DNA from: a virus
Taxonomy: Duplodnaviria > Caudoviricetes
Length of the DNA: 45,599 nucleotides
Strand: one strand, 5' to 3'
IMG/VR virus record: IMGVR_UViG_3300022719_000041
Coordinates: 1-45,599 of that record
Position 1 is the stretch's first letter, and every line of letters begins with the position of its first letter. Both the position numbers and the translations under genes were made by a program. Shown piece by piece: positions 5,739-31,411 of this stretch. Under the pieces are notes generated by a model that saw nothing but the letters and a program-made list of their open reading frames with translations, did not search any database and was not told the DNA's origin.

Positions 5739-6089
5739 ATGGAACTGGTCAGACGTGCGCTCCCGGGCCTGATAATCGCCGGTGCGATCATCTGGTTTAC
5801 CTACCTGTTGAGCACGCTCAACGACGCCGAGCCCCGCCCTGAGAGCAGGCCGGACCCGGCCGTAGACCGTTATTTGTTGAAGGCGTCCGAGCTCCGCCTG
5901 GAGCTATTCGATCGAACTTATGAAGATCAACTGGAAATTCTCACCCTAGAGAATCAGGGATGGGGCCTGTCCTATCCGGAGGCCCGGAACGAGGCGATCG
6001 CGGAACTGGACGACGAGCGAAGCTACCTGAAAATCACTGTCAACGACTATCGCGTCGCTGTCGGCGAAGTTCCCGAAGTGTCTCCCTGA
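5739..6089 (+). CDS. Opposite-strand accessory membrane-anchored protein (moron-like)
   Basis: N-terminal TM (LPGLIIAGAIIWFTYLL); extended -10 TG-C-TAAATT (5724-5732) lies 6 nt before the ATG. Confidence 0.6.
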   Translation: MELVRRALPGLIIAGAIIWFTYLLSTLNDAEPRPESRPDPAVDRYLLKASELRLELFDRTYEDQLEILTLENQGWGLSYPEARNEAIAELDDERSYLKITVNDYRVAVGEVPEVSP

Positions 6090-9000
6090 CCACCCGCATT
6101 CGGTCCTCGAACTCTTTCGGGCTGATCCGTGCATTTCGCCCACGAGTAGCAGCTCGGCGGGCGTTGGAAACCGACTGACTGGTCGGTCGCCACGTCGGAA
6201 TCTCTGTGCGGACGATCGAACTGATCCGGCTGTTCGGGATTCCCGCGTCATCAAGAATCCGCCGGATCTCAAAGTCACTCAAACCGGAAACCCGGACTGC
6301 GCGCACAGCATCGTGTACATCTCGGAATGCCGTCTTCCACCGCTCATCGGATTGCAAGACCGCATTGCGGATTTCGCGCTCAGACATCGGATTCGGGTTG
6401 CGGAGCGCCCGGTACAGCGGATTTCGGGATTCTCGGTAGGACCTGTTGAAGTCGAAGCCCCGGAATTTCAGGGAAGTCTCCGGGTCCGCCGTGGTCAACC
6501 GGAACCCGATCCAGCCCAGTGCCTCGTCGGCCTTCTTGTATTCCTTGCCGTAGCTCGTGACCTCGCCGTGCAGAGCTTTGAGCGATCGCTCGATGTTCGC
6601 CGCGATGCCCGGCTGCAGCCCCTTCCGAAGATGCTCCAGGGACTTGATTGCCTTGTCGATCTTGGACGCTGATTCGTCGTAGACCTCTCCGCCATCCAGC
6701 CGCTGGTTGAAGGCAACCTCACCGATCGCCGTGGCGGCAATGTCCGGTCCGAGGAACGGCCCGAGCAATTCCTTCAGCGCCTCACCCACCTTTTCCTGCA
6801 CACCCTCGTTATTCCCGTTCATGACCGCCCGAACTGGCAGTTTCAGGTAGGCGTAGGGGTCCAGGTGCGACAGGTCCAGATACCGGATATTGCCCTCCTC
6901 GTCCGGCGGCATGTACGCGAACTGCGCGTTTCTCTGCCAGGGCGCAGCCATTTCCCGGATCGCCTCGTCCTCCTCGTCGTCGATGCCGAACATGGCCATC
7001 AACGTCATCCCCACCGCAGAAGCCCCTGCTCCCGCTGTCGCCATGCCCACCATGCGCCTTGCCGCCATGCTCGTCCGCCCAGCCGCCAGGTCTTCTCGGA
7101 CAATGCGGAATTGCTGACCGGTCGTCCTCGCGATCTCCCATGGGAAGGAGACAAACGTGCCGGCCCCCGGGAACCGTCTCAGCCAGCGCACAGACTCAGG
7201 AACCATCGAATACGTGGGGTAGCCGTTCCTGATCCGGTCCGCGGCCATGGCCTCGGCCTCAGCCTCATTCATCCCGCTTTTGACCAGGGCCTGCTTCTCG
7301 TTCTCGAACCCGATAATCTTCCAGAAATCGTCACCGGCCCGGTAGATCTTGGTCGCCACGTTCAGTGTGCCTTTCAGGGCACGGGCCGCGATGTTCCCGC
7401 TATACGGGTCGGTGCTCATCACGTCCTCGAGCGCAGCCCGCATCTCCCCGGCGCGAGGATTATCGTGCAGAACGCCCAGCCGCACCAGTTTTTTCAGGTA
7501 CTCGTGGCGATCGGCGTTGTTTGAGAACAGGTCCGCCCAGGTGTGTTGGGCAGCCCGCTTGGAGTGGCGCCAATCGAAATGCCCGTTCATCACCGTGAAC
7601 ATGGACGCCGAGTAAAAGTTCCGAAATGACGTGGTGGGACTGAGCACGGTCTTCCCGTACTTTACTGCTGAATTCATTCTCAGCGCCTGCTTGTATAGCC
7701 CGCTCAGAGAATCGACGTTGACAAAATCACGTAGCGCCTTCGCAAATTCAGGCGTAGCGTATAGCCCGCTGAGCGGGACCATCGTGTCATCGGCCCACGA
7801 CGATATTTCCGTGCTCATGCGGCCAGATTCCCGCGTGGACAGGAACTCGCCGAGCCCGTCTTCCCGGACCTTGGACAGGAAGTGATGGTTTGCCACTAGA
7901 CTGCCCATTTTGGTCAGCGAGCGCGCGAAGTTCATGCGCGGATCCGTGTGCTCGCCCATCAACTCCCGGATCTCGGGCGCGATGTCCTTGCGCCTTTTCA
8001 GGATCGACAGGTCCTTCTGGCCCAGCAGGCCGGAGGACAGAAAACCGACCATACCGTCCTGATCGGTCCGGAGAATCGCGTTGATGATACCCTCGACGTG
8101 GTCCTCGATCTCCTTGTCGCTAGCCTCCGAGAACTCGTCCTGGGCGCGTACCCGTTCGTTCAGGAATTCGCGCGCACGCTCAATGACCTCTGCTGGCGGG
8201 CTCCACTTCTCATCGTCGAATACCCGGTACGAGCGATTCAGGTACTCGCCCTTGTTGGATTCGATCGTCCGGATGGTCCCGATCTTGCGGGCGATGAGCC
8301 CGCCCACATTCGGCAGCCCCTGAATGGTCTCGATCGCCTGCTCGTCACCTGCCAGCGCCGCATCCAGATTGTCCAGGAATACCTGGCGGTTTGCGTCGTC
8401 CAGTGACTCCGACGCGAACCGAACCTCGTCGATCAGCACCATTTGAACCTGTCCGGAAAGACGATCAAGCGCGCCGCGCATCACGTCCAACGCATCGCGA
8501 ACCTCCTGATCCAGCCCCTCGACCTCCCGGCCGGCCAGATATTCGTTCATCTGCTGCCGGTCGGCCTCCGGGATACGGGCATAGAATCGCTGTCCGAACG
8601 CGCGCCGAGCCGCTTTCGTGAAGTCCGCGGTGAAGAACTGGGTATCGAGCTCGATCTCGTTCTTGATCCCGTGGGTCTCGATATGCCGGGCGAACGCTTT
8701 GGGATGCAGCAGGCCCTCTTTCGTGAACAGCTTTTTGGCCCACTTCTTGTGCGCCTTCTGCTCGTCAAGTGACGGGTCGCTGGTCTGAACGGTAATGACC
8801 TTGCCGTCCGAATCCCTGCCCATGTAGGCGGTAGTCGTGAAGACTTCCTTGCCGGGTTTGACCCGCTCGCCGGATTCGTCGGCCCTGTAGGTTTTTGACC
8901 GCGAATACCGGATGTCTGGGTTGTCGGGATCGAAGGTGCCAACGTTGCCGGTGGCGGATTTGATCTGGGTTGGATCAAACACCACCCACGTCTCCGCATC

Positions 9001-12000
9001 TTCACTGAAATTCCCCTCCGGGAAATGGACGCTATCGTACCCCTGCCGCTCCGCTTGTTCCGCAAACCCCTCATTGGTATCAATGGCGGACTCTTGGCCG
9101 TTCACCATCGGCGTCATATCGTCAGTGAACTCAACCACCATCGGGTTTTCAGCGCGCAAGTAAGCAGACGTTATATCCCCGTCCATGCCCACGTACTGCC
9201 CAGCAGTCCTGCGATTGGTGGTAAACCATGATCCCGGCTCTCGACGGCCAGGTTCAAATTCCGTAATCCCAGGCTCAGCGCTCCCATGGTAGACCACCAG
9301 CGGATTGCCATCGGCATCCACCACCCTGCTGTTGCCAAACCATCGACGAAACTCAGGTGTTTGCGTCTGATCGGCTGAGGCATTCGCCGGCACCGGCGCG
9401 TTCTCCGCGATCTTGCCGTTGAACATGACCACAACGTCCTCGTTGCGAACGTCCTGGGTCACCTCCGGGCTCATCATCCGACGACCGCGGTCACCGAGCC
9501 GTTGGCGTTCCTGGGTATTGCGCGCCTCGACCTCGCCGGCCAGGCGATGGTAGGCGTCAAAAGCGTCCTGATCCTGAACGCGGGTTTTCTTCCAGGCCTC
9601 ATCGCGCCGGGTCACCGCGTCGATGAACTCCCGGACCGTCGGGTCGCCGAATCCACCAGCGGCCTCGACGGCCGCGTAGTAAGCGTCCCGGTTCTCGGCC
9701 ATTTGCTGTTCCTGCGCCGGCGTCGCGATCTCGCGCAAATCCTGATCCGCGTGCGGCGACATCGGGTTGATACCCAGCGCGCCCATGATCTCCTGCCGGT
9801 CATTGTTCATCCGTTCGAACGTGGCCGCGACCTCCGGAATCTGCCTGCCGATACGCCGGACTTCTGTCTGCGCCCTGCGGAACCTGTTCTCGGCCTGCTG
9901 AATCAGAGCGTCCCGCGCACCGCGCGGCGAACCTCCGGTGGCGAACCCTTCGACGTGCTGGATGCCGTGCTGAATCTCATGCAGCAGCGTGCTGAACTGC
10001 TGCCGGGCACCCAGATCGGCGTTGATGGAAATCGTGCGGTTATCCCGATCCAGCCGCCCGAACGTGGACTCGCCCATGCCCTGGCTCGACCGGACCGTCA
10101 TGTCCCGCAATTCCGGGTACGCGGCAAACAGCGCCGGGTGGTCGATAACGCGTTCCAGCGGCTCGGTCCAGACCTTGCCGACCGTCTTGTTCGGGACCGG
10201 CAGATACCGGGCGTCCGAATCGTTGATCTCGAAGCGCCACTTTTTGTCCGGGCCGCGGAACCAGCCGGTTTCTTTGCGGATCGTCTCAGGATCATCGCCA
10301 CGGCGGAGACGGTCGCGGGCCTCGACCAGCGTCTTGCGATCTGCGGTTTCCGCCCGAACCCCGGCGAACGAGTACATCGCCGGCGCATAGGCCGAGCCCT
10401 GCTGTTCATGGAGCCCATCCACGACCCGCTGTACGGAACCGCGCGCCAGGTGCGCGATGTCGTTGGCCGAGAAGTCCCGGGCCAATCCGTACCGCGACAG
10501 GAATTTCCGGACCAGCCGACGAATTTCGGCGATGATCTGTTTGAGCTTGCTGGTTGTCGCCCCGCCCTCGGCCATGTAGGCGATCGTTTCTTCCCACAGG
10601 GCGCTCTCAGGCTTGCCCTGGAGCGTTTCGTCGGCCTGGGCACGCCGATGGGCGGCCAGCGCCTCCTGGGCGCTTCTGGACCGGCTCCCGCGCTCTCCGG
10701 CGCGCACCTGCCGCTTGATCTGGCGTACCAGCCGCTTGTAGCTGCCGGCCTCGGCCTCGTCCATCATCGACTCAAGACCGTGGTGGACGCCGACCTCGTG
10801 CAAGATCAGGCCGCGCTCGGAGCCGGGGGCGATGTTGTCCGTCGCCAGCCAGATTTCGCCGTTGATCCACGCGCCGGCGGCGTCGGGCGGGTGGTTTCCG
10901 GGCCAGTCGGCCGGGGTATTCGTCACGTTGACCAGACTGGAGCCGAGCAGCGCGTTCTGGGCCTTTTTCGTCAGCGTGTCTCGGACGGCCTGTTCGGTGG
11001 TTCCCGAGAAGCGTTGACCGCTGTCATTGCTCTGGGGTACACTGTCATCGGACGAGGTAGAGTCCTCGGAGGAGGGCTCAGGAAGCGACGACCGGTTCGC
11101 CTCTGCCTCAAGGTAGTCGCGAACCGTAGGCACTCCTGGATCAGTACTGCCCGGCAAAGCACCTGCCGCGGGGTTGCCGCCCAGGGCCTCGTCCAAACTT
11201 CCCTTTTTCTCCCGCATTTTCTTTGCGATCTGGCGATCAGTGACCCGATATACCGAGGCCACACGGAATGATCCATCTCTCATCCGCCGGAAATCGACGC
11301 GGACTGCCGGGATCTGCCCAAGCTCTCCTTGCCGGACCAGCGTGATGCGACCCGCTGCATGCGGATACCAGTTTTCGGGCCGTTCAAGAACGAACTCAAC
11401 ATCTGCCTGCGCATCCTGCTCGGACCCGTAGTGCTCAGGGTGGCGACGGGCAAGTTCGTCGAAATCGGCAGTGATCCGCTGCGGCTGGTCGAACCCCATC
11501 CAACGCCAGGTACGGCGGGGGACCTGCACTGCCTGGCGAGAGTATCTAATTTCCGGCTCGCGAACCATCGCCTCGCTGATCTCGAAGTCCCGATTGCGTC
11601 CGGTATTGCTCCGGAACCCGAAGCGCCGATAGAACCTCTTGAGCCTGCCCACCGACGAAGCACCAAAGTCCGCGCTCGGGTCCACGGCGATTCGCTGCCC
11701 GGTACGATCAGCGTAGTCGGTGAGCTCCTGCATGAACTCCGTCCCAAGACCGCGACTTCGCTGGCCACGCGGTGCGACGATTTTGTCCAGCCGGATCACG
11801 CCACCGCTTTCTCGAGCGTACAGATCGAGCCGGTCGGACCAGCGGGCAAGCAGGTCATTGAGGTTACGACGGGAATATCGCGCTTCCTGCGCCCTTACTT
11901 CCGGCCCTTCTTCTTGTGCCGCCCGGCCGCGCGCTCGCCCGGCTTCTTCGTCGCGTTGTGAATCTTGGCCGCGCGTTTCTGTGCCTTCTTCTTCGGCACG

Positions 12001-15000
12001 CCCTTCTTGCGCAGTTTGTCTCTGATCGCTTCGTAGCGTTTCGGCATCGGGGGTCTCCGTGGTTGCGGGCTGTTGATCGGGGGTTAATGCGGCGCGTCTG
12101 AATTGCGGGCTACTATCAACCGGACGAACACGATCAACATGCGCCGCAACGTGAATCTCGCCATCCTGAAAGGCATCGTCAAGCCGAACATCTGACGGGT
12201 CAGCCCGAACCTCAACCGTCGCATCACCATACCCTTCTGCGTAGCCCGCCGCCCTGGTCGAGAAGAACGCCTCGTTCGTGTTCTCCGCAGAGACAAAGCG
12301 GCCCGTCTCGCGGATACGCTGTGCGGTTTCTGGAGTTGTCCGGTGGTAGAGCGTGATCGTGCCGTCTTCATTGACCGGAACCGGAACGCCGTTCAGGTCT
12401 TGAAGGGGCGACCCGCCCTGGTCTAATGGCGCTTCTTGACCCGCCGCCTGCTCCTCCGTGGCCGGCTCGCGATGAATCTCGCCGGTAATCGCGTTCAGGA
12501 CCTGCCAGTCGCCTCCTGCCGGCGCCTGGTCGATTGCCTGCTCCACGGTCTTGAAGTGCTGCTCGCTTTTTTCAGGGCGGTAGGTGACGAGCATATATGG
12601 ACGGTCGGGGTCAACCGTGGCCGGTTGGTCGTGGACGTTCGTGTACTCCAGGCCCGGTTGTTCGTGAGACGGGTTCTCGAACCCCTCGCGCTCCAGCTCG
12701 CGCCCGTACTCGGATGTGCGCGGCAACGTCGGCTCCGGCGGCACGAACTGGTCCGATTTTTCTGCACTTCCTACCCTTTGACTTTCTCCGGCATTTGTGG
12801 TACGTGGCTCGCCCTCGACCGCCTTCGGCCCGAACATATCGGACTGCGGCGGCCGTGGACCGGCAAACAGTTCGCCCTCGCCCTCGATCATGTCCGGGGC
12901 CTGGTCGGCGCGCTGCTGGCGAGCCCGGTCGGCGTCGGATTGCGCTTGGGCGGTCTGGTCGACCGCGCCGGCTAGGTCTTGCCCTTCGCCTTGTTGTCCG
13001 GTTGCCGTCGACGCTTCAACTTCCTGCCCTTGTTGCGCTTGGCGTTCTCGAGCACCTGGTCCTTGATCCTCCGGAACCGCTTGGTTTCCTTGGCCATTTC
13101 TTTCTCCTTGGCTGATCTGCCACAGGCCGCGCACGGTCTCGGCCTCGCTCAGATCGGCGTTCATGATTTCAATCGCCGCGGCCTCGTCGAGCGCGCGCGC
13201 GTCCTCGAATAAGTCGTACAGGGCGCGGGCTTCGGCATCCATGTCCGCCAGGTACTCGTCGTTTGCGTACCGGAAACCGGCCAGATCGCGGCCCCGGTCG
13301 GCCATGTCGCGGCCCAGAGCATCAATCTCCGCGTCCGAACGCTCACCCCGGGCGATACGCTGCGCTTCCCGGTACTCGGCGAGCATTTCCTGCCAGGTTT
13401 CGGGCGCTGTGCCGTCAGCAGCGTTCAGCCGTTCTGTCTCGATCTGGCCGAGCATTTGGCTGATCACTTCGGTCTGCCTTGATCCAAGCCGCTTGCCCTC
13501 AAGCGCCTTGTTGACCGCGTTTTTCACGTCGTCGGTCGACACCTTGAGCTCAGCGGCCATTGACTGAAACCACATCGGATTCACCGAAGGGCTGCGAACA
13601 ACCTGGTCAGTGCCGTAGTCCCAGAGAAGATCGCCGGTGTTGTCCCGCCGAGTTGCGCCCGGGGCTGGAACCAGCGCGATGCCCCCGCCTTTGGTCAAAT
13701 CCCTGGTCATCTGCAGCAGGCCCGCGCGGTAGGGCCGGCGCATTAGCTTCGGATCGTCCAACCCTTCCGGAAGCTGCTCGCGGCCAACCGGCCCGATCAG
13801 CGGGTTCCTGGCCGCTGCGCCTCTTCCACCCTCTGCCGGGGCCTGCTCTCCTTCCGGCGCCTGATCCCCACTCTCATCCCGATTGATCTCGCGCTCCAGG
13901 CGCTCGATGAGCTCGGCATCCGTAATCTCCCCGGTATCTTGGCCCGCCTCGGCGTCACGTTCGGCCTTGGCCCGGCGCATTGCCTCGGCCATGACCGGAT
14001 TCGGCGGCGCGGGCTCGACGAATTGCTGCGGGTCCTGTTCGTGCTTCTGTGCCTCGGCCTGCAGATAGTCGGCGTCGAATTGACGGCGCTGCGCCTGCTC
14101 ACGCTGCCTGTAAGCGGCTTCTTCCTGTTCGCGGCGCTGCTGCTCGGCGCTGCGGTCTTGCTGCTGCTCGGCCTGAACCCGCGGCAATCCCTCGTCCATG
14201 GAGCCGATGAACTGGTCGGCCAGGTTGAACCCTGCGGCCACGTCCGGGGCCTCGTCCTCGAGCATGGACCGGGCTTTGCCGATGTCGTCCTGTTCGATCT
14301 GCGGGGAAAGCAGGGGAGTCTGCGCGGAAGGGGGAAGGCGGTCGAACGGGGGTAGGCCGGATACGGGGTTTTCCGGGCTTGGCGGCTCCTGAGACGGGCG
14401 CGGTTGTGCGCCTTGGATTGCTCCGGCACCGGCACCGAACAGACCGAAGATCGCACCCTGCCCTGTCGCCTCGCCAGCGCCTTCGAGAAGCATCTGCTCC
14501 GGGTTGATCTGCTGGGTGGCCAGATTGGCGAGAATTTTGCCGGTGCCTTCTTCAGCGCTCTCGGTGATGGATTCGCCGGCCAAACCCCGGGCACCACCTG
14601 CAATAGCCCCTCGCGCGCCGCCCATGCCACCCCTGACGCCGCCGCCAAGAACGCGTTCTACCGACCGCGCGCCCGGGATGGCCAAGTTGAGTCCGGCCGA
14701 CGTGACGGCACCGGCAAGCGCATTCCAGCGCGAGAGTTCAAGCGCGATCTGCTCTTTTGCCTGGTCCTCCGGGACACCGGACTCAATGAGCTTCTGGGTC
14801 GCCTCGTTGGCCGCCCAGAGCGCGTTCTCCTGGCTAAGCAACTGATCGTAGGATTCGCCACCCACGTCCGAGCCATGAAGTGCTGCGCCCGTACCCACAG
14901 CGCCCCCGGTGGCTGCCGCTCCGGACGCGACTGCGCCCTTGCCGGACATCTTTGCGATCGTACCGGCCACGCGTCCACCGATGCCGGTCGCAATCAGGTT

Positions 15001-15462
15001 CGGCGCCTGTTCGGCCAGTGTGTTCGACAACAACACCGGGTCCGATGCGATCGACTTGACCGTCGTTCCAAGCTGGTTCCAGAAGCCCTCCTGGCCTTCA
15101 ATCTCGGCGCGCATCCGTTCTTGCCGGGCCTTGAGTTCATCGCTATGGCGGCCCGACCAGTATTCCCGACCGGCCTCGCCCTGACGGCGCGCCCAGTTGT
15201 CCATATCGACCGTTGCCAACCCATAACCGGTGCCGACCATGCCCAGCAGGGCATTTGAGCCAGCGCCGAATGACCGGCCAATATCGGCAGCGCGTTCGCC
15301 CACCGTGTAGGGATCGTGCTGCATGTCCAGCGCCCGCCCAATAACCGCCGGCGAGCCGTACTCGCCCATCAGGTCGACTTTGCCGTCGCCCTCGGGCAGA
15401 TCGTCCAGCCAACTGCCGTCAGTGCCCTCTGCTTCGGGCATCGCGTCCAGCCAATCAGCCAC
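6040..15462 (-). CDS. Giant polyvalent internal virion (ejection) protein, 3140 aa
   Basis: Last gene of the ejection-protein block. Contains an ART-like module (TLYHRTT), a GNAT (RGQRSRGLGT..LKRFYRRFGF), a BECR-like module, a zincin (LILHEVGVHH), LPD23-like GWFRGPDKKWRFEIND with LLHEIQH, and ART-PolyVal-like FRRWFGNS..PLVVYHGS..VVFDPTQIKSA. Confidence 0.9.
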   Translation of the reverse strand: MADWLDAMPEAEGTDGSWLDDLPEGDGKVDLMGEYGSPAVIGRALDMQHDPYTVGERAADIGRSFGAGSNALLGMVGTGYGLATVDMDNWARRQGEAGREYWSGRHSDELKARQERMRAEIEGQEGFWNQLGTTVKSIASDPVLLSNTLAEQAPNLIATGIGGRVAGTIAKMSGKGAVASGAAATGGAVGTGAALHGSDVGGESYDQLLSQENALWAANEATQKLIESGVPEDQAKEQIALELSRWNALAGAVTSAGLNLAIPGARSVERVLGGGVRGGMGGARGAIAGGARGLAGESITESAEEGTGKILANLATQQINPEQMLLEGAGEATGQGAIFGLFGAGAGAIQGAQPRPSQEPPSPENPVSGLPPFDRLPPSAQTPLLSPQIEQDDIGKARSMLEDEAPDVAAGFNLADQFIGSMDEGLPRVQAEQQQDRSAEQQRREQEEAAYRQREQAQRRQFDADYLQAEAQKHEQDPQQFVEPAPPNPVMAEAMRRAKAERDAEAGQDTGEITDAELIERLEREINRDESGDQAPEGEQAPAEGGRGAAARNPLIGPVGREQLPEGLDDPKLMRRPYRAGLLQMTRDLTKGGGIALVPAPGATRRDNTGDLLWDYGTDQVVRSPSVNPMWFQSMAAELKVSTDDVKNAVNKALEGKRLGSRQTEVISQMLGQIETERLNAADGTAPETWQEMLAEYREAQRIARGERSDAEIDALGRDMADRGRDLAGFRYANDEYLADMDAEARALYDLFEDARALDEAAAIEIMNADLSEAETVRGLWQISQGERNGQGNQAVPEDQGPGARERQAQQGQEVEASTATGQQGEGQDLAGAVDQTAQAQSDADRARQQRADQAPDMIEGEGELFAGPRPPQSDMFGPKAVEGEPRTTNAGESQRVGSAEKSDQFVPPEPTLPRTSEYGRELEREGFENPSHEQPGLEYTNVHDQPATVDPDRPYMLVTYRPEKSEQHFKTVEQAIDQAPAGGDWQVLNAITGEIHREPATEEQAAGQEAPLDQGGSPLQDLNGVPVPVNEDGTITLYHRTTPETAQRIRETGRFVSAENTNEAFFSTRAAGYAEGYGDATVEVRADPSDVRLDDAFQDGEIHVAAHVDRVRPVDSSPQFRRAALTPDQQPATTETPDAETLRSDQRQTAQEGRAEEEGTETRGQDSQRDEEAGRARGRAAQEEGPEVRAQEARYSRRNLNDLLARWSDRLDLYARESGGVIRLDKIVAPRGQRSRGLGTEFMQELTDYADRTGQRIAVDPSADFGASSVGRLKRFYRRFGFRSNTGRNRDFEISEAMVREPEIRYSRQAVQVPRRTWRWMGFDQPQRITADFDELARRHPEHYGSEQDAQADVEFVLERPENWYPHAAGRITLVRQGELGQIPAVRVDFRRMRDGSFRVASVYRVTDRQIAKKMREKKGSLDEALGGNPAAGALPGSTDPGVPTVRDYLEAEANRSSLPEPSSEDSTSSDDSVPQSNDSGQRFSGTTEQAVRDTLTKKAQNALLGSSLVNVTNTPADWPGNHPPDAAGAWINGEIWLATDNIAPGSERGLILHEVGVHHGLESMMDEAEAGSYKRLVRQIKRQVRAGERGSRSRSAQEALAAHRRAQADETLQGKPESALWEETIAYMAEGGATTSKLKQIIAEIRRLVRKFLSRYGLARDFSANDIAHLARGSVQRVVDGLHEQQGSAYAPAMYSFAGVRAETADRKTLVEARDRLRRGDDPETIRKETGWFRGPDKKWRFEINDSDARYLPVPNKTVGKVWTEPLERVIDHPALFAAYPELRDMTVRSSQGMGESTFGRLDRDNRTISINADLGARQQFSTLLHEIQHGIQHVEGFATGGSPRGARDALIQQAENRFRRAQTEVRRIGRQIPEVAATFERMNNDRQEIMGALGINPMSPHADQDLREIATPAQEQQMAENRDAYYAAVEAAGGFGDPTVREFIDAVTRRDEAWKKTRVQDQDAFDAYHRLAGEVEARNTQERQRLGDRGRRMMSPEVTQDVRNEDVVVMFNGKIAENAPVPANASADQTQTPEFRRWFGNSRVVDADGNPLVVYHGSAEPGITEFEPGRREPGSWFTTNRRTAGQYVGMDGDITSAYLRAENPMVVEFTDDMTPMVNGQESAIDTNEGFAEQAERQGYDSVHFPEGNFSEDAETWVVFDPTQIKSATGNVGTFDPDNPDIRYSRSKTYRADESGERVKPGKEVFTTTAYMGRDSDGKVITVQTSDPSLDEQKAHKKWAKKLFTKEGLLHPKAFARHIETHGIKNEIELDTQFFTADFTKAARRAFGQRFYARIPEADRQQMNEYLAGREVEGLDQEVRDALDVMRGALDRLSGQVQMVLIDEVRFASESLDDANRQVFLDNLDAALAGDEQAIETIQGLPNVGGLIARKIGTIRTIESNKGEYLNRSYRVFDDEKWSPPAEVIERAREFLNERVRAQDEFSEASDKEIEDHVEGIINAILRTDQDGMVGFLSSGLLGQKDLSILKRRKDIAPEIRELMGEHTDPRMNFARSLTKMGSLVANHHFLSKVREDGLGEFLSTRESGRMSTEISSWADDTMVPLSGLYATPEFAKALRDFVNVDSLSGLYKQALRMNSAVKYGKTVLSPTTSFRNFYSASMFTVMNGHFDWRHSKRAAQHTWADLFSNNADRHEYLKKLVRLGVLHDNPRAGEMRAALEDVMSTDPYSGNIAARALKGTLNVATKIYRAGDDFWKIIGFENEKQALVKSGMNEAEAEAMAADRIRNGYPTYSMVPESVRWLRRFPGAGTFVSFPWEIARTTGQQFRIVREDLAAGRTSMAARRMVGMATAGAGASAVGMTLMAMFGIDDEEDEAIREMAAPWQRNAQFAYMPPDEEGNIRYLDLSHLDPYAYLKLPVRAVMNGNNEGVQEKVGEALKELLGPFLGPDIAATAIGEVAFNQRLDGGEVYDESASKIDKAIKSLEHLRKGLQPGIAANIERSLKALHGEVTSYGKEYKKADEALGWIGFRLTTADPETSLKFRGFDFNRSYRESRNPLYRALRNPNPMSEREIRNAVLQSDERWKTAFRDVHDAVRAVRVSGLSDFEIRRILDDAGIPNSRISSIVRTEIPTWRPTSQSVSNARRAATRGRNARISPKEFEDRMRVVRETLRELRRQRRDSR
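11014..11043 (+). promoter_or_regulatory. Antisense sigma70 promoter inside the polyvalent gene
   Basis: TTGACC (11014-11019), 18 bp spacer, TACACT (11038-11043). Confidence 0.6.
11050..11195 (+). ncRNA. Putative structured antisense RNA (~145 nt) embedded in the polyvalent gene
   Basis: Begins 6 nt after the -10; GGACGAGG (11050-57) pairs with CCTCGTCC (11187-94); internal hairpins at 11060-11079 and 11093-11126; pyrimidine tract follows. Confidence 0.5.
11895..12047 (-). CDS. Nested +1-frame basic protein (50 aa) inside the polyvalent gene
   Basis: GGAG-N7-ATG; MPKRYEAIRDKLRKKGVPKKKAQKRAAKIHNATKKPGERAAGRHKKKGRK*. Confidence 0.65.
   Translation of the reverse strand: MPKRYEAIRDKLRKKGVPKKKAQKRAAKIHNATKKPGERAAGRHKKKGRK
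12972..13097 (-). CDS. Nested +1-frame basic protein (41 aa) inside the polyvalent gene
   Basis: AAGGAG-N6-ATG; MAKETKRFRRIKDQVLENAKRNKGRKLKRRRQPDNKAKGKT*. Confidence 0.6.
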   Translation of the reverse strand: MAKETKRFRRIKDQVLENAKRNKGRKLKRRRQPDNKAKGKT

Positions 15463-16561: not shown

Positions 16562-17145
16562 CGTTGACCTCCGGGGAGTCCCTGTTGAATGCCGGCGGCG
16601 AGCGGGTCGGGCTGCGGCCCACCCATCTGCTGACCGGCCTGTCGAATTGCCTGCGGGTCGCCGCCGCGCGCCTTAACGCGCTCGTCGACGTACCGGGCGG
16701 CCTCGTCGAACGTCCCGTCCTCGAGGAACTCGGCGAACATCTCCTCGGCGATTGCGCGCTGTTCGGGGTCATCACCGACCTTGGCCATGTGAATCTCGAT
16801 CATCCGGCCGAGCGCATCCTCGCGCAATTCCGTCAGGTCGCTGGTCGGCGTGCCGACGGCCTGCGCAATCTCGATCAGGTAGTCGATGGTCTCGGTGGCC
16901 AGCGGCAACAGTATCTCGAGGGTCACCATGTCCGGCGCGACCTGCGCGATCTGCTCGGAAACCTGAGTCATCACCTGGTAGCTCACCGCCGCAATCGTGT
17001 CGGCGAGCCCGCCATCGGTGCCGGCGTTGGAGATGGACTTTGCAACATGTTCGCGTGCCGGGCCATGGAGATAGTCGGAAATCCCGTCGGAAAGCTGCTG
17101 CAGCATCTGCTCGTCGGAGCCGTCGATCAGGCCCTGGTTATCCAT
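16558..17145 (-). CDS. Virion-block hypothetical protein (acidic, helical)
   Basis: GGAGG RBS, overlaps both neighbours. Confidence 0.75.
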   Translation of the reverse strand: MDNQGLIDGSDEQMLQQLSDGISDYLHGPAREHVAKSISNAGTDGGLADTIAAVSYQVMTQVSEQIAQVAPDMVTLEILLPLATETIDYLIEIAQAVGTPTSDLTELREDALGRMIEIHMAKVGDDPEQRAIAEEMFAEFLEDGTFDEAARYVDERVKARGGDPQAIRQAGQQMGGPQPDPLAAGIQQGLPGGQR

Positions 17146-17887
17146 AGGGACCTCCGTTCATAAAGTTGGGGTTGTCTGGATCAAGCAACGGCCCGGCGCT
17201 CCTCCGCCGCGCCTGCGGGCCGGCGAGCGGCACCGGGGCATACGGGACGGTGTCGGTCGCGGTATTCGGCGAACCCCACGGCTGATGCGCCTTGTTGCCG
17301 CCCTCGAAGTCCACGCCCCACAAGGCGCGCGGCTCCGCGGCCTCCTGTTCGGCCCGAGTCGAGAAATACTGCCCGGCCGCGCCGACCAGCGCCGGACCCA
17401 TGTTGCCGCCCAGGATGTTTCCGAGCAGGCCGCCTCCGCGGCGTTGCCCACCTGTTCCCGGCGGGCCACCTGCAGCGATATTCCCGGCATAGGGCGCGGC
17501 CCCGGAAATCGGATTCCAGCCGACCTGGTTCAGCCCACCGGCACCCGCACCCGATGCGGCGCTGCCCTTACCGAACATTAGTCCGCCGAGGCTACTTGCG
17601 CCCTGCGCGCCCGTGAAGTTGTTCAGTAGGGTTTGTCCGCCTACCCCGCTGCCAAGACCGACCGTTCCGGCAAGTGATTGTGCGCCTGCCCACATGGTTG
17701 AGCCAATACCTCCGAGAATCCCCTTTGAAGAGATTGCACTGGAGAGCCCGGAAAACCCCAGGCCTGGCGTCGCGAGGCCGGCGGTAAAGGCGACACCCGC
17801 AGCCATGGCAATCGGCTTCCAGTGTTTCTTGACGAACTTGCCGACTTTTTTTAAGCCCTTTTTGACACCTTTGACGATCTTGCTCAT
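17138..17887 (-). CDS. Internal virion / pilot-like protein (249 aa)
   Basis: AAGGAG RBS; MSKIVKGVKKGLKKVGKFVKKHWK amphipathic basic N-terminus followed by a Gly-rich hydrophobic region. Confidence 0.8.
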   Translation of the reverse strand: MSKIVKGVKKGLKKVGKFVKKHWKPIAMAAGVAFTAGLATPGLGFSGLSSAISSKGILGGIGSTMWAGAQSLAGTVGLGSGVGGQTLLNNFTGAQGASSLGGLMFGKGSAASGAGAGGLNQVGWNPISGAAPYAGNIAAGGPPGTGGQRRGGGLLGNILGGNMGPALVGAAGQYFSTRAEQEAAEPRALWGVDFEGGNKAHQPWGSPNTATDTVPYAPVPLAGPQARRRSAGPLLDPDNPNFMNGGPYG

Positions 17888-17906
17888 GAGAATTTCTCCT
17901 TCCTGA

Positions 17907-17938
17907 TACAAAAATCCCGATTTTTCGGGATTTTTGTA
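17907..17938. promoter_or_regulatory. Perfect 14-bp inverted repeat (operator or hairpin)
   Basis: TACAAAAATCCCGA-TTTT-TCGGGATTTTTGTA between divergent genes. Confidence 0.7.
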
Positions 17939-17994
17939 GGAGCGTTCTTTTAGCCAATTTGGCATCATGCTTTCTCGTTCAAACGGAGAGCAAC

Positions 17995-18222
17995 ATGCCA
18001 CCCAAAGCGTTCACCAAAACCGATTCGGACCTGGATCGGCTGATTTCGCAGACACAGTTACGCCGCCTCTTCGGAGAGATCTCCGACATGACGATCTGGC
18101 GCTGGCGCAAAGCAGGGTTGCTGCCGCAGCCAATTGTGATCAATCGTCGGAACTACTACCGGCAATCTGATATTGCCGAGATGCAATCAAGGCTATCCCG
18201 CGAGTCGGACGGTAGCGAGTAG
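17995..18222 (+). CDS. AlpA/excisionase-like HTH protein (75 aa)
   Basis: GGAG RBS; ISDMTIWRWRKAGLLPQPIVINRRNYYRQSDI is a typical AlpA-family signature. Confidence 0.85.
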   Translation: MPPKAFTKTDSDLDRLISQTQLRRLFGEISDMTIWRWRKAGLLPQPIVINRRNYYRQSDIAEMQSRLSRESDGSE

Positions 18223-19641: not shown

Positions 19642-22524
19642 TTATCGCTCCAGTCTGCGTTGACTCAGGGTCGGGAATTCGAGCACCTGAATGGTGTGCG
19701 GGGTTACGTCCTGGGCCTCGATCGCCAGGGAGAAATCCCGGCCACGAGCCTTGTGACGGGTCTTGGCGAATACGGGGCGCTGCTCGTTCAGCGTCGCGGC
19801 TCCGAAATTGGTTGTCCCGTTGTACCCGGACGGCAGCGCGTAATCGACGCCCATCTGCGTCTTGAGCTGCACCAGCCCCTCGGAAATTCCATGGATATGA
19901 ACGGTCGTGACCCGGAGATTTCGCCCCGGCCCGTTCGCGTGAACCGGGTTGTAGACGATCCGCCCGCGGATCAGTTCGCCATCGAAATCCGCGCCGTAGT
20001 GAATCCGGTATACGTAGTTCGATTCCTCGAAAGATGCGAAGGACAGCGCCTCGTTGTCCTCATCGACGCCGCTGGCCACGGCGATGACCTTGAGCGGCGC
20101 TTCGTCGCTGGTCAACCACGGCTTTTGCATGGTCCAGCGCGGCACCTGGTCCTCCAGATACGTCAGGGTCAGCACGTACCCGTCCTCGAACCACAGTCGG
20201 TATTGCGACTTCTTGCGCACGGCCTCGGCCAGAATCGGCCTGATCCCGGAACTGGCATCGGCCTGCAGCCTCGGCAACAGCCAGGGGCGCACCGGCCGCG
20301 AGAGACGCCCGGAGTCGAAGTCGCCGTAACGGTCGCTCGCAGCCAACGTGGAAACGCCCCGGAAATCCGTGAAAATCGGCATGCCGCCGATGTTGTGAAC
20401 CGTGTACTCCAGGGCGCCGGTCTTGTCCGCGATTACCTGCTGGATCGAATCCGCGGAAGTCGCGCCCTGAATACCGAAAATCGAGGTCTCGGTCCACACG
20501 CCCAGCGTCTCGCCGTCCAGGGGCAACATCCCGGTGATGCGTCGGCCGAACCCGACCGAAAACGCGCCGAGCACGCCGTCGAACAGCACGGGTTCTGTGG
20601 CCACCGACAGGTCCGCGTCACCATTTTCGTAGCCGAGCACCAGACGATCCTTGTGCCGACTGACATGCCGGGGCTCGTCCTCGGTGCGCCCGGTACGGAT
20701 CTTGAGCAGGTAGTTGTTGTTGAAAGTGAATGCGAAGTCCGCGCCGGATGCGCCGTACACGGCGGCCAGGCGACCAGCGGCGAAGAAATTGGTCTCGAGC
20801 CAGGTAAACTGGCTTTTCTTGAGCTTCATGCGATCGCGGCTCGGCAACCGAATTGGCGCCAGTGCGCCGTCAAGATCGCACACCACGTCCCCGGCCCCGC
20901 CGGGTTGGGTGTAGACCGTGGCGGTCGACGGGATCAACGCCGGGTTGTCCACCCGGGCCAGGGTCAGCACGCCGGCCGCGTCGTTGCCCGCGAAGCTCCC
21001 GCCGGGGTTGACATGGGTATAGATCGCTCTCGCCTGATAGTCGGTGCCCCCGGCGCGCAGGTAGACCACCGATTCCAGACTGCCCTCGCGCAGATGCACG
21101 ATGCGCCGGACCATGTAGACGCGCACGACGGTCGCCGCATCCGCGCCGGCGGCCGCGAAGCGAACCAGCCACTCGTAGGCCGCGTTCGTGATGTTGTCGC
21201 GCAGTTCGTTGACCGACGAGGCGCCCCAGGTATCGAACTCGCCGCCAAAGGTCAGCGTCGATTTTGTGTCCACCACGGTCCCGGCACCGCGCTTGGCCCC
21301 GGAGTCCGATGCAACCTCGTCGACCGTGATGTCCATCGTGCCCGAAACACGCTCGCAGATCACCTGGATCGTCACCCCGGTCGGTTCGTCCAGAGGGTCT
21401 AGGGAGTCCGTGAAGTCCGCGACCCGGATATGCTCGGTCAGCTCCCCGGCCGTGTTCAGCGTGGCCTCGACGAAACTCGCGTCGTCAGACTGGATGGCGT
21501 CGCGCATCGCCGCATCGTCCTTGTCCCAGTCGGCTCCGCCGGCCTCATCCCAGTACGCGGTATCCGCCGATGCCGACGGCAGCGCGCCCGGCGTTTCGTT
21601 TTCCGCGATCTGCCCGCCGTTGGAGTACACGTCGGACGGCGCATTCTGGCCGTTCTTGAACGCGACCTCATAGGCTTGTTCGATGGTCTCCCAACCCTGT
21701 CCGGTCGAACGAATCAGCACGCCGCGGTTGACGGTCTCGCCGATGTCGGAGATTACCGACAGGCCGGTGCCGGCGAGCACGCCGTTCTCGCTGTAGCCCA
21801 CGACGTTGGCCGCCAATCCGACGGTAACCCCGTCGGACACGCGCTCGATGATGGCGTTGGCGCCGATCTGGGCCGCAGTGTCGATCTCGACCCACACGTC
21901 GGCCACCAGGTCCAACGTGTTCGCCGCGCCGGAAATGACGGTCACACCGCGCACGGTCGCCGTCCAGCCGCTCTGCGGGTCCGTGATCTGGTCGCCGGGC
22001 ACGGGCTCGAGCTCCCCGTTGGTCAGGTCGACCCGGGTATAGGCCACCATGTCCCCGGCAAACACGTCCAGGTCCGGGCCAATCAGCAGTTCGATCAGGT
22101 CCTGCGTCTGGCCCGCGAAACTCGCATTCGCCTCCAACACCCATCCGTTCGGGAATCCGGATGGGGTATCACTGTAGATCTCGACGCGCTGGCCCTGCAC
22201 GGCCAGATTCTCGGCCGGGATCGGCCGGGTGCCGAGCGATACCCGGACGGACTCGACAACGGCATACAGCCAGGACTGATCGTTGGCCCGGTCCGTGAAG
22301 TGCTTGAGCCCGTAGGCCGGGCCTCCCGGTGCCTTGCTGACCAGCGCGCGGTATGCAGACTTGTCGTCCAGGATCGCCTGTCCGTCCCACCGCAGCATGC
22401 CCTCCATCCACGAGTAGCCCTTGCGATAGGCGATCTCATAGTTCAGGCACTCCTGCAGTGAACCCGGTTCCAGCCGGAGCTTGTCTTCGTTGAGCTCCAG
22501 GCCGATCGTGGATGGGACGATCAT
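19642..22524 (-). CDS. Tail nozzle / DNA-stabilisation protein (960 aa)
   Basis: Start MIVPSTIGLELN..LQECLNYE with TGATG coupling; HKDRLVLG and KSQYRLWFEDG motifs; position after the adaptor. Confidence 0.75.
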   Translation of the reverse strand: MIVPSTIGLELNEDKLRLEPGSLQECLNYEIAYRKGYSWMEGMLRWDGQAILDDKSAYRALVSKAPGGPAYGLKHFTDRANDQSWLYAVVESVRVSLGTRPIPAENLAVQGQRVEIYSDTPSGFPNGWVLEANASFAGQTQDLIELLIGPDLDVFAGDMVAYTRVDLTNGELEPVPGDQITDPQSGWTATVRGVTVISGAANTLDLVADVWVEIDTAAQIGANAIIERVSDGVTVGLAANVVGYSENGVLAGTGLSVISDIGETVNRGVLIRSTGQGWETIEQAYEVAFKNGQNAPSDVYSNGGQIAENETPGALPSASADTAYWDEAGGADWDKDDAAMRDAIQSDDASFVEATLNTAGELTEHIRVADFTDSLDPLDEPTGVTIQVICERVSGTMDITVDEVASDSGAKRGAGTVVDTKSTLTFGGEFDTWGASSVNELRDNITNAAYEWLVRFAAAGADAATVVRVYMVRRIVHLREGSLESVVYLRAGGTDYQARAIYTHVNPGGSFAGNDAAGVLTLARVDNPALIPSTATVYTQPGGAGDVVCDLDGALAPIRLPSRDRMKLKKSQFTWLETNFFAAGRLAAVYGASGADFAFTFNNNYLLKIRTGRTEDEPRHVSRHKDRLVLGYENGDADLSVATEPVLFDGVLGAFSVGFGRRITGMLPLDGETLGVWTETSIFGIQGATSADSIQQVIADKTGALEYTVHNIGGMPIFTDFRGVSTLAASDRYGDFDSGRLSRPVRPWLLPRLQADASSGIRPILAEAVRKKSQYRLWFEDGYVLTLTYLEDQVPRWTMQKPWLTSDEAPLKVIAVASGVDEDNEALSFASFEESNYVYRIHYGADFDGELIRGRIVYNPVHANGPGRNLRVTTVHIHGISEGLVQLKTQMGVDYALPSGYNGTTNFGAATLNEQRPVFAKTRHKARGRDFSLAIEAQDVTPHTIQVLEFPTLSQRRLER

Positions 22525-23255
22525 CAGTATCCGTACCCGCCGTAGCCGCCACGGAACTTCGGCTCGTTGATATGGATCGGCGGTAGTTGATCGTTGCGCA
22601 GGTCCATGAGTGACTGATCGAGCTCGAATTGCACCGTTTGCATCCGCTGGACCGACTCGTCGTAGAAAGCGTAGTGCCTGAGCGCCCAATAGAAGATCAC
22701 GTTTTGCAGGTCGGCCGGCATCGCCGGCTCGCACGCGTCCTTGACCTCCATCTTCAACGGACGGCGGATATAGTTGAAATTGAGCTTGTAGGCTTTGTCC
22801 GGTATCGGATAGACGCGAATCTGCTCGTTCGGCAACACCGTGTACTTCTTCGGCCGCCCCTCGGTCGTCGTCGCAAGCCGCTCATCGTAGTAGCCCGCCC
22901 ACTGCCGATACGGCAGAAAGTAGATGGGAATGCGCGATGTGTTCGGGTCACCCTCGACATGGATGTGCGAGTAGTGCCAGGGGTGGAGATAGGGCACCAC
23001 CTTCTTGAACTGGTCGTCGCCGAGATATTGGGCGAGCGGGTAATCGGTGACCCCGCTTTCGACCTCGATCGAGCCCTCGCGCATGCGAAAGCGCCAGTCC
23101 TCGTGCATTTTCTCGATCTCGAAATTGGCGTCGACAATCCAGTCAATCAGGTCAGATACATGGTCATCGGTGACCGATTCGACCGTAGTGATCTGACTGG
23201 GGGAGACCGTGCCGGTCTCCCTCGCCAGTTTCTTCACGAGCTCAAGCAGTGTCAC
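22524..23255 (-). CDS. Head-tail adaptor (tubular protein A-like)
   Basis: GAGGAG RBS with GTG start; TLLELVKKLARETG..GRPKKY..VYPIPDKAY. Confidence 0.8.
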   Translation of the reverse strand: MTLLELVKKLARETGTVSPSQITTVESVTDDHVSDLIDWIVDANFEIEKMHEDWRFRMREGSIEVESGVTDYPLAQYLGDDQFKKVVPYLHPWHYSHIHVEGDPNTSRIPIYFLPYRQWAGYYDERLATTTEGRPKKYTVLPNEQIRVYPIPDKAYKLNFNYIRRPLKMEVKDACEPAMPADLQNVIFYWALRHYAFYDESVQRMQTVQFELDQSLMDLRNDQLPPIHINEPKFRGGYGGYGY

Positions 23256-24064
23256 GCTGCATTCTCCTCGCCAAACAGACCGCCCCCGTCCTCGGAGTCG
23301 ATCAGATCGGGGTCGAACCCGAGCGCGTAGAGGATGATCTCGCGGATCGCCTCGACCTCGGTGCCACGTTCGTAGCGCAGCGACAAACGCCGGCAAATCC
23401 GGGCCAGTTGTGTCCGGTTCCAGCCGGCGAAGAAGTCCGTTGCCTCGGCGATCATCCGGAACTGCTCTTTTTGCGAGCGCGGAAGATCAATCGTCTTCGG
23501 GTCGTCGCCGAAATCCGCGAAGTTGAACCGGTTCTGCTCAGTCTTGTGGTTGATGATCTTCGGCGTGCCCCGGCGATCAGTTGTCCGCTCCTGCTCGATC
23601 TCGATGTACGTCGTGTTCTTCATCATGTTGTAGATCGGGTACGGCACAGACACCTGCACACCCCAGGGCACCATCACCTGATGCCGGCCCCATGTCCACG
23701 GATGAGCCTGCTGGCCCTTCATGGTCTCTGGCCGCGGCACGTTGACCAGGCGCCGCCGCCCTTCCCATTTGCCGTCCGGGCCGAGATTCAGACGCGCCAG
23801 GCGCGCCAGATCCGCCTTGTCGAGTTCCTGCGGCAGTACGTCCTCGAATGGGCGAGCCCCGGGATTCGTCGGGACTTCGACAGCCTCCCCGTCGTCAAGC
23901 CGCATTCCAATTCGTTCAAGCATTCGGTCACGCAGACGCTCGTCCTTGATATTCGGATGGAAGTCGATCTCCATCGCATTCGCAAACGCTTCCAGCTTTT
24001 CGCGATCGCAGTCCTGAAAACGGTTTGCGATGGCTCCAGCCAGGTTCAGAGTCGTGTCATTCAT
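23252..24064 (-). CDS. Post-capsid hypothetical protein
   Basis: 270 aa, AAGGA RBS, coupled to the adaptor gene. Confidence 0.75.
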   Translation of the reverse strand: MNDTTLNLAGAIANRFQDCDREKLEAFANAMEIDFHPNIKDERLRDRMLERIGMRLDDGEAVEVPTNPGARPFEDVLPQELDKADLARLARLNLGPDGKWEGRRRLVNVPRPETMKGQQAHPWTWGRHQVMVPWGVQVSVPYPIYNMMKNTTYIEIEQERTTDRRGTPKIINHKTEQNRFNFADFGDDPKTIDLPRSQKEQFRMIAEATDFFAGWNRTQLARICRRLSLRYERGTEVEAIREIILYALGFDPDLIDSEDGGGLFGEENAA

Positions 24065-31216: not shown

Positions 31217-31411
31217 TCAGTATTTCATGCCCTTCTTGCCGCTCGAGCCCTTGCTCTTGCCGCCGTAGTACCCGCTGTCGCCGGGATGGCCGGTTCCCTT
31301 GCGGGAATAGCCGTCGGGACCGACGTTCGAGTGATTGCGCTCGCTCGACAGATTGCCGGCACCGGCGAGCGTGCCGGAACCGCGGTGTGGCTTTTTGTGT
31401 CCGTGTTTCAT
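31217..31411 (-). CDS. Gly/Lys/His-rich small basic protein
   Basis: AGGAG RBS; followed by a GC hairpin at 31180-31208. Confidence 0.7.
   Translation of the reverse strand: MKHGHKKPHRGSGTLAGAGNLSSERNHSNVGPDGYSRKGTGHPGDSGYYGGKSKGSSGKKGMKY

Follow-up and report, generated by a model that had tools for sequence, protein, structure and literature searches.

We found that the gene of a giant polyvalent phage protein contains, on the same strand and out of frame, a 41-codon open reading frame (n41) that is probably a real, translated gene in its own right, a reading to which we assign, from its sequence features, a probability of about 0.85. Its product would most likely be a companion of the acidic helical module that the host gene encodes just upstream. 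The window, by which we mean the whole stretch of DNA analysed, is a virus record of 45,599 bases with podovirus-like late genes on the minus strand, and contains the following features.

6040..15462, minus strand: host gene, encoding a large polyvalent protein of 3,140 aa
Host aa 1697-1752: LPD23 domain (E 1e-21)
Host aa 2049-2177: ART-PolyVal domain (E 6e-23)
C-terminal part of the host protein: match to phrog_22602, 'virion structural protein'
13099..13752, minus strand: upstream host module (aa 571-788), a PS[VE]NPxWF domain plus an acidic helical bundle
13104..13109, minus strand: Shine-Dalgarno (SD) sequence AAGGAG of n41, 6 nt before its ATG, in host codons CAA GGA GAA
12972..13097, minus strand: n41, nested ORF of 41 aa in the +1 frame of the giant gene, host codons 789-830
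12055..12058, minus strand: SD sequence GGAG of n50, 7 nt before its ATG
11895..12047, minus strand: n50, a second nested ORF of 50 aa in the same +1 frame of the giant gene

The host protein has a net charge of -111, and the overall GC3 of its gene is 0.74. It is a multidomain protein with polyvalent-associated domains, and the genes for terminase, head-tail connector, major head protein and SU10 adaptor lie upstream of it on the same strand. With LPD23 and ART-PolyVal domains and a position among virion genes, it resembles the polyvalent proteins of Iyer et al. 2017 (PMC5512222), whose accessible text places such proteins among late genes and predicts packaging in the virion and injection for the class. 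A search for sigma-70 promoters in 11500-14000 gave none. Elsewhere on the minus strand, a free-standing 64-aa Gly/Lys/His-rich ORF (31217-31411, SD AGGAG) lies directly upstream of the small terminase gene, and the called start of the ORF at 17138-18001 is probably too early, the likely protein beginning at an internal Met with a Lys-rich leader.

The preliminary description had reported an AAGGAG-AAAGAA-ATG start followed by a 41-codon frame, and we located exactly this on the minus strand, with the SD at 13109-13104, the ATG at 13097, formed from host codon N789, and a TAG stop ending at 12972. The host frame runs unbroken across n41, with no stops, and the AAAGAA spacer holds the rare host codon AGA. 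Anti-SD pairing energy at the n41 start was -8.5, as compared with -9.0 for the major capsid gene and -7.1 for the host gene itself. Counting bore out the claim that G or C stands at the third position of 36 of the 40 codons following the ATG. This position corresponds to the first base of the host codons; only 26 of 3,100 40-codon windows of the host gene reach this value, every one of them at n41 or n50. Over the same region host GC3 drops to 17/43, against 0.74 gene-wide. Between host codons 785 and 830, CAA accounts for 10 of 11 Gln codons (gene, 43/172) and GGA for 4 of 9 Gly codons (gene, 34/280), as had been described, whereas the third codon said to be favoured, AGA, occurs only once, in the spacer of the ribosome-binding site (RBS), and had been overstated. 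The synonymous shift towards A-ending host codons begins at the n41 RBS and stops at the nested stop, spanning the nested ORF as originally proposed. When 8,294 sliding 42-codon windows from 19 genes were scanned for excess A at synonymous sites, n41 came second (z 6.7) and n50 third (z 5.6) once overlapping windows had been set aside; the first-ranked window was the 5' end of ORF 19642-22734, which is overlapped by the adaptor ORF 22524-23396.

Resampling of synonymous host codons separated the informative from the uninformative properties of n41. An ATG with an SD of at least 6 nt and an open frame appeared in 265 of 50,000 trials; when the SD was relaxed to 4 nt or more and codons were drawn as the gene itself uses them, an ATG, an SD and 30 open codons arose at the n41 site in 16% of resamplings, so that the RBS alone is modest evidence. 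The peptide contains 10 lysines and 8 arginines, no Cys and no His, and its net charge of +14 agrees with the initial designation of the gene as basic. However, +1 frames of these genes are basic by default, with a background of about +4 to +5 per 25 aa that n41 does not exceed; basicity by itself is therefore weak evidence, and it is the lysine excess that counts. Ten or more lysines were reached in 0/50,000 trials. Resampling of the whole gene produced one SD-led, lysine-rich +1 ORF in 5 of 200 runs and two in none, and on the entire minus strand only four SD-led ORFs contain at least 12% lysine, n41 and n50 being the only ones above 20%. Ser, Thr, Pro and Cys are depleted relative to the +1 background. 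The n41 peptide is strongly hydrophilic (mean Eisenberg value -0.81), its helical moment is not significant (269/3,000 shuffles), and neither Pfam nor PHROG gave a match to it. It matched no family or fold of DNA-binding proteins, and has no hydrophobic signal, lipobox or signal peptide.

The second nested frame, n50, shares the frame and the character of n41, as the preliminary description had indicated, with its own GGAG and a GC3 of 42/49; its SD region is weakly structured, within the weakest ~1% of the gene's 50-nt windows. It belongs to a family of small basic proteins with two helices, most of them encoded by free-standing ORFs. We recovered two protein matches and 30 viral loci (25 distinct), in six of which the relative is nested in the +1 frame of an ORF of more than 1,400 codons; elsewhere the corresponding frame is broken or no longer than 206 codons. 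The six other nested-n50 hosts and the host in the window have unrelated flanks, with a single weak match among the seven. Six scored nested members gave 63-89 bits against a model built from free-standing members only (free-standing members, leave-one-out, 53-92), and the six are more conserved in the nested frame (57% of amino acids) than in the host frame (41%). Among free-standing relatives, 11 of 19 loci had a head-and-packaging or connector match in the tested neighbours, which were 60 of the 71 listed. The n50 tree required six changes for seven nested rows (6.3 in shuffles) and a single nested clade had a p-AU of 0.35, fitting one or several captures. A structure model predicts two helices (pLDDT 81) with no significant fold match, and five of seven members showed a weak, sub-cut-off similarity to DUF7218. 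The family invariants P2, Y5, A26, I29, N31 and K35 (alignment A6) are present in n50 and absent from n41, which by inspection do not appear to be homologues. Because no free-standing n41 homologue was found, the capture of a free gene is shown for n50 only. At one locus (L007:8001-8260), between terminase and portal, a second tiny basic ORF comes after a free-standing n50 relative. We also observed 16 clustered variant sites at 11740-11808, in the domain directly after n50, in one minor contig (run X1), which suggests a divergent allele or a related phage; the 31 variant sites of the one DNA run, which may be the source sample and had no RNA counterpart, include none within n41 or n50, which is uninformative.

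We detected 13 SD-led, coding-like +1 ORFs, distributed among 10 genes, in 33 non-redundant polyvalent genes found by domain (90,157 codons), and none in 86 neighbouring genes (42,490 codons; P 0.007), although six of the 13 came from loci fetched with the upstream module. Among ATG ORFs of 35 hosts, a set that includes the window and six hosts chosen for n50, 21 of 441 were coding-like in the +1 frame (17 of them SD-led) and 0 of 42 in the +2 frame. The giant gene itself has two further SD-led +1 ORFs on the minus strand, of 46 aa (12084-12224) and 40 aa (13797-13919), with GC3 of 0.80 and 0.82; both failed the coding-likeness filter, and host GC3 dips at the former, just before n50. Larger nested frames occur at other loci. 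An 83-aa, globular-looking +1 ORF with an SD (L020:8586-8834) resembles phrog_938 over the C-terminal part of the latter (E 1e-10) and has a weak match to DUF7219, and the same sequence is therefore found in frame in another family. Four more (L206:12354, L198:11081, L205:9213 and L044:8220) span 92-124 aa, with SDs of 4-6 nt, protein-like composition and no PHROG match, and a single polyvalent gene with InPase, radical SAM and ART domains holds at least four SD-led, coding-like +1 ORFs (L030:5299, 7729, 10987 and 11467).

To examine conservation of the n41 start, we used homologues of the upstream module, collected by aligning it with five protein matches, which led to 15 loci and then three more, at ~25-45% identity; L197, L204 and L209 (duplicates) and L211 (a 119-aa fragment) were omitted from the site test. 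A homologue passed the test if, no more than 8 codons from the N789 column, it had an ATG led by an SD of 4 nt or longer and followed by 30 or more open +1 codons. Such a start was present in 8 of the 14 homologues, with 0.66 expected and none of 200,000 simulations reaching 8, although the P value is optimistic because the loci are related and the site window and thresholds were set after the ORFs had been seen. Two other statistics, a product of T-ending codon frequencies and a joint probability, were discarded as post hoc. A single further lineage (L212-L214), fetched after the test, also has the start, with a 39-aa ORF of 23% lysine. Conservation of the RBS and ATG was the check on which the preliminary description had staked its claim, and the outcome favoured a gene. 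Across homologues the host codon at the nested ATG is AAT, GAT or CAT, and the SDs are spelled by differing host residues (QGE, TR, QE, KE, EA, GE, WR, WS and AR), several of them using the rare host codons AGG, GGA or AGA; the conserved element is an ATG lying 4-9 nt behind the SD. Six of the 14 homologues failed the strict test. L208 and L207/L209 have a 3-nt GGA SD before a similar peptide; L202 and L203 are without the acidic bundle, and their SD-led nested ORF begins at the end of a shorter module; L201 has an ATG without an SD, and in L196 the site is devoid of an ATG. L212 and L213 differ by no change over the 50 codons of SD and ORF and by 32 over 290 upstream codons, a weak contrast, since the next 18 codons are also unchanged.

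The module that precedes the start is acidic: the last 60 host residues before n41 have a net charge of -10, which places them in the protein's most acidic 4%, and in all 13 cases the equivalent 60 residues belong to the most acidic 1-21% of their protein, 11 of them to the most acidic 10%. In an AlphaFold model of host aa 571-789, the final helix (H203-218 of 219) is predicted to end one residue before the ATG codon, in keeping with the earlier proposal that n41 starts where a helical module ends. Searches with the module gave no match at E ≤0.001 in PDB or BFVD and no significant family match; the second-best BFVD row (E 0.028) was a polyvalent-domain protein. A cultured carrier of the module is Gilvimarinus chinensis DSM 19667 (L209). 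No n50 relatives were found in four genomes carrying the module, and one module-bearing host contains a third kind of small basic protein, a 51-aa nested ORF with Cys and Lys preceded by GGAGG (L210:1331-1483).

At the peptide level, n41 shows weak similarity. The same-site peptides are barely alignable (mean column identity 29%), and the resemblance of n41 to them is only suggestive. The peptides of L202 and L203 align in the nested frame better than all 5,000 shuffles (0/5,000), whereas host-frame alignment was equalled in 2,295/5,000. Against n41, the L203 peptide gave 126/5,000 (P about 0.025; rank 2 of 1,775 +1 segments), the L202 peptide 524/5,000, the two-sequence L202/L203 profile 76/3,000 (with three of 1,637 segments scoring equally well), and nine other same-site peptides from 53 to 1,704 of 2,000. 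Lysine excess at host-synonymous sites was nevertheless significant over 11 homologous sites with the window excluded (Fisher P 9e-7). The closest host homologue, P0005, a protein sequence for which a search found no DNA, has D in place of N where the ATG lies and 20/37 identities over the n41 overlap, as compared with 7/30 beyond it; its back-translation allows the ATG, is free of stops over 36 codons and is compatible with 25 of 35 n41 residues, which partly restates host homology. Nor did searches turn up any close relative with DNA. No candidate for a free-standing n41 emerged from 5.8 billion proteins, and none from viral contigs or annotated phages. The sole match among 1.84 billion representatives was a repeat protein (E 8e-4) and was rejected, and the best ESM Atlas score, 0.85, is a lead only. 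A degenerate SD-ATG-MAKxTK[RK]F pattern hit 95 loci, and the 45 distinct ORFs listed proved to be unrelated genes or shadow frames of one ~300-aa gene family. An HMM of A5, run against 9,424 small ORFs of the fetched loci, retrieved its own members alone at significant E-values.

In the reading that we favour, ribosomes would initiate internally at the n41 SD and ATG on a shared late mRNA, yielding a lysine-rich peptide with a predicted short helix and a basic tail. This peptide may bind the acidic helical module, whose coding sequence lies immediately upstream, and neutralise it as the giant protein folds or enters the head. The arrangement probably originated when the upstream module lost its stop, causing read-through of a small downstream gene in its -1 frame, and the host 'linker' over n41 would then be a passenger reading. 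Nesting would be seen only in the +1 frame because the host reads the -1 frame of the captured gene, a frame in which GC3-rich genes have few stops. We prefer a role as companion of the acidic module because the n41-type start is tied to that module, and because GndA, described below, provides a precedent. For gene and partner role together we consider the odds slightly short of even; partner function, the weakest step, retains about half of the probability that n41 is translated, and L202 and L203, whose peptides n41 most resembles, have hosts without the acidic bundle, a poor fit to a fixed partner role.

The strongest competitor, which we judge possible though clearly less probable than the partner role, also treats n41 as a real gene, but one for a DNA-binding or charge-neutralising late peptide serving packaging or head stability, with the linker as a convenient, late-expressed parking place. 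The charge of the peptide fits this, as do the frequent location of free-standing n50 relatives near terminase, portal or capsid genes, the free-standing small basic ORF before the small terminase gene in the window, and the unrelated flanks of nested n50 copies, which imply that the n50 peptide needs no fixed neighbour. It is harder to reconcile with a start tied to one module across distances of ~30% identity, which mere parking would not require, and with the failure to match any DNA-binding family or fold. Two other readings dispense with a functional peptide, and we regard both as unlikely. The act of translation might matter instead, internal ribosome loading tuning output of the full-length protein or shielding the mRNA, and conservation of SD and ATG over peptides that barely align would fit this; however, the codon distortion covers all 41 codons and ends at the stop codon, the L202 and L203 peptides are conserved in the nested frame only, and Ser, Thr, Pro and Cys are depleted. 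Alternatively, and about as improbably, n41 might be a relic, a free small gene captured by read-through and now silent, with a decaying signature. Weak peptide conservation, the missing SD of L201 and the missing ATG of L196 would agree with decay, but SD, ATG and open frame are intact in lineages only ~30% identical in the host frame, and the absence of changes between L212 and L213 in SD and ORF codons argues, weakly, the same way.

That n41 came about by chance, from a Gln/Gly/Glu-rich linker in a high-GC gene, is already largely refuted, and we consider it very improbable: +1 frames are indeed, by default, basic and open over long stretches (441 ATG ORFs in 35 hosts) and an SD-led start is cheap at this site, yet neither the ten lysines nor a pair of lysine-rich ORFs was reproduced by resampling, and the start position is conserved in homologues. 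Still less probable is a programmed +1 frameshift into the n41 frame, by which the giant protein would be cut short and end in a basic tail. Stimulation of +1 frameshifts by SD-like sequences does occur, as in prfB; the conserved element here, however, is an ATG 4-9 nt behind the SD, and the aligned junctions show no slippery site in common.

Known systems offer partial parallels. In phage lambda, Rz1 lies wholly inside Rz, on the same strand and over a flexible host linker, and the accessible text of that study adds that the spanin family also occurs in separated form and that loss of the upstream stop codon is one possible embedding route (PMC6139136). Like Rz1, n41 is fully embedded on the same strand, in a shifted frame and with its own RBS; unlike it, n41 has no Cys, lipobox or signal peptide of a lipoprotein, its host is a 3,140-aa LPD23/ART-PolyVal protein and not an inner-membrane i-spanin of a lysis cassette, and the giant gene, in contrast to Rz, has several unrelated small genes nested in one host. 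Thus n41 works like embedded Rz1, but is not a spanin. The ShiLan domain, described in the accessible part of PMC11855218 as an HNH endonuclease encoded out of frame in actinophage methylase genes, resembles n41 in that what looks like a host loop is the passenger reading of a gene in another frame, the host frame being free of stops; n41 differs in its length of 41 aa, in having no HNH or nuclease match and in its fixed site behind one module, with nothing suggesting homing. GndA, reported as an Escherichia coli altORF microprotein inside gnd that acts on the host ORF product (bioRxiv 10.64898/2026.10.22.760973, text available in part), is likewise an out-of-frame microprotein and a precedent for the partner mechanism, although GndA is membrane-associated, heat-induced and experimentally shown, whereas n41 is hydrophilic and putative. 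The disruptin gp28 of phage phiKT, according to the accessible portion of its report (bioRxiv 10.1101/515445), is a small, cationic, amphipathic and membrane-bound peptide; n41 is small and cationic too, but hydrophilic and without a significant moment. Out-of-frame remodelling has been described for E. coli, as far as the accessible text of PMC8788219 goes. Our literature search, whose coverage excluded most subscription journals and supplements, turned up no account of genes nested within those for polyvalent proteins; the main text of PMC5512222 does not contain 'overlap', 'frameshift' or 'linker', and its mentions of 'nested' and 'reading frame' are unrelated to nested genes.

A broader and more speculative possibility, which we hold to be on balance unlikely, is that giant polyvalent genes are compressed operons, in which modules were recruited with their small downstream companions, these being kept as +1 nested genes whose -1 reading is the 'linker', and in which n41 would be a dedicated, co-translated chaperone or inhibitor of the preceding acidic module. 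If true, this would also explain the linkers and the gain of domains by polyvalent proteins. What n41 contributes is a start site that stays with one module in distant phages, together with a sister gene that has free-standing relatives, and the nested start is removable by one host-silent base change (AAT to AAC). Polyvalent proteins rank with the largest products of phage genes, and their linkers have the look of filler. Should these linkers be second genes, they would represent a layer of small proteins missed by annotation, knockouts and proteomics, and read-through of a downstream gene would offer a concrete route for domain accretion.
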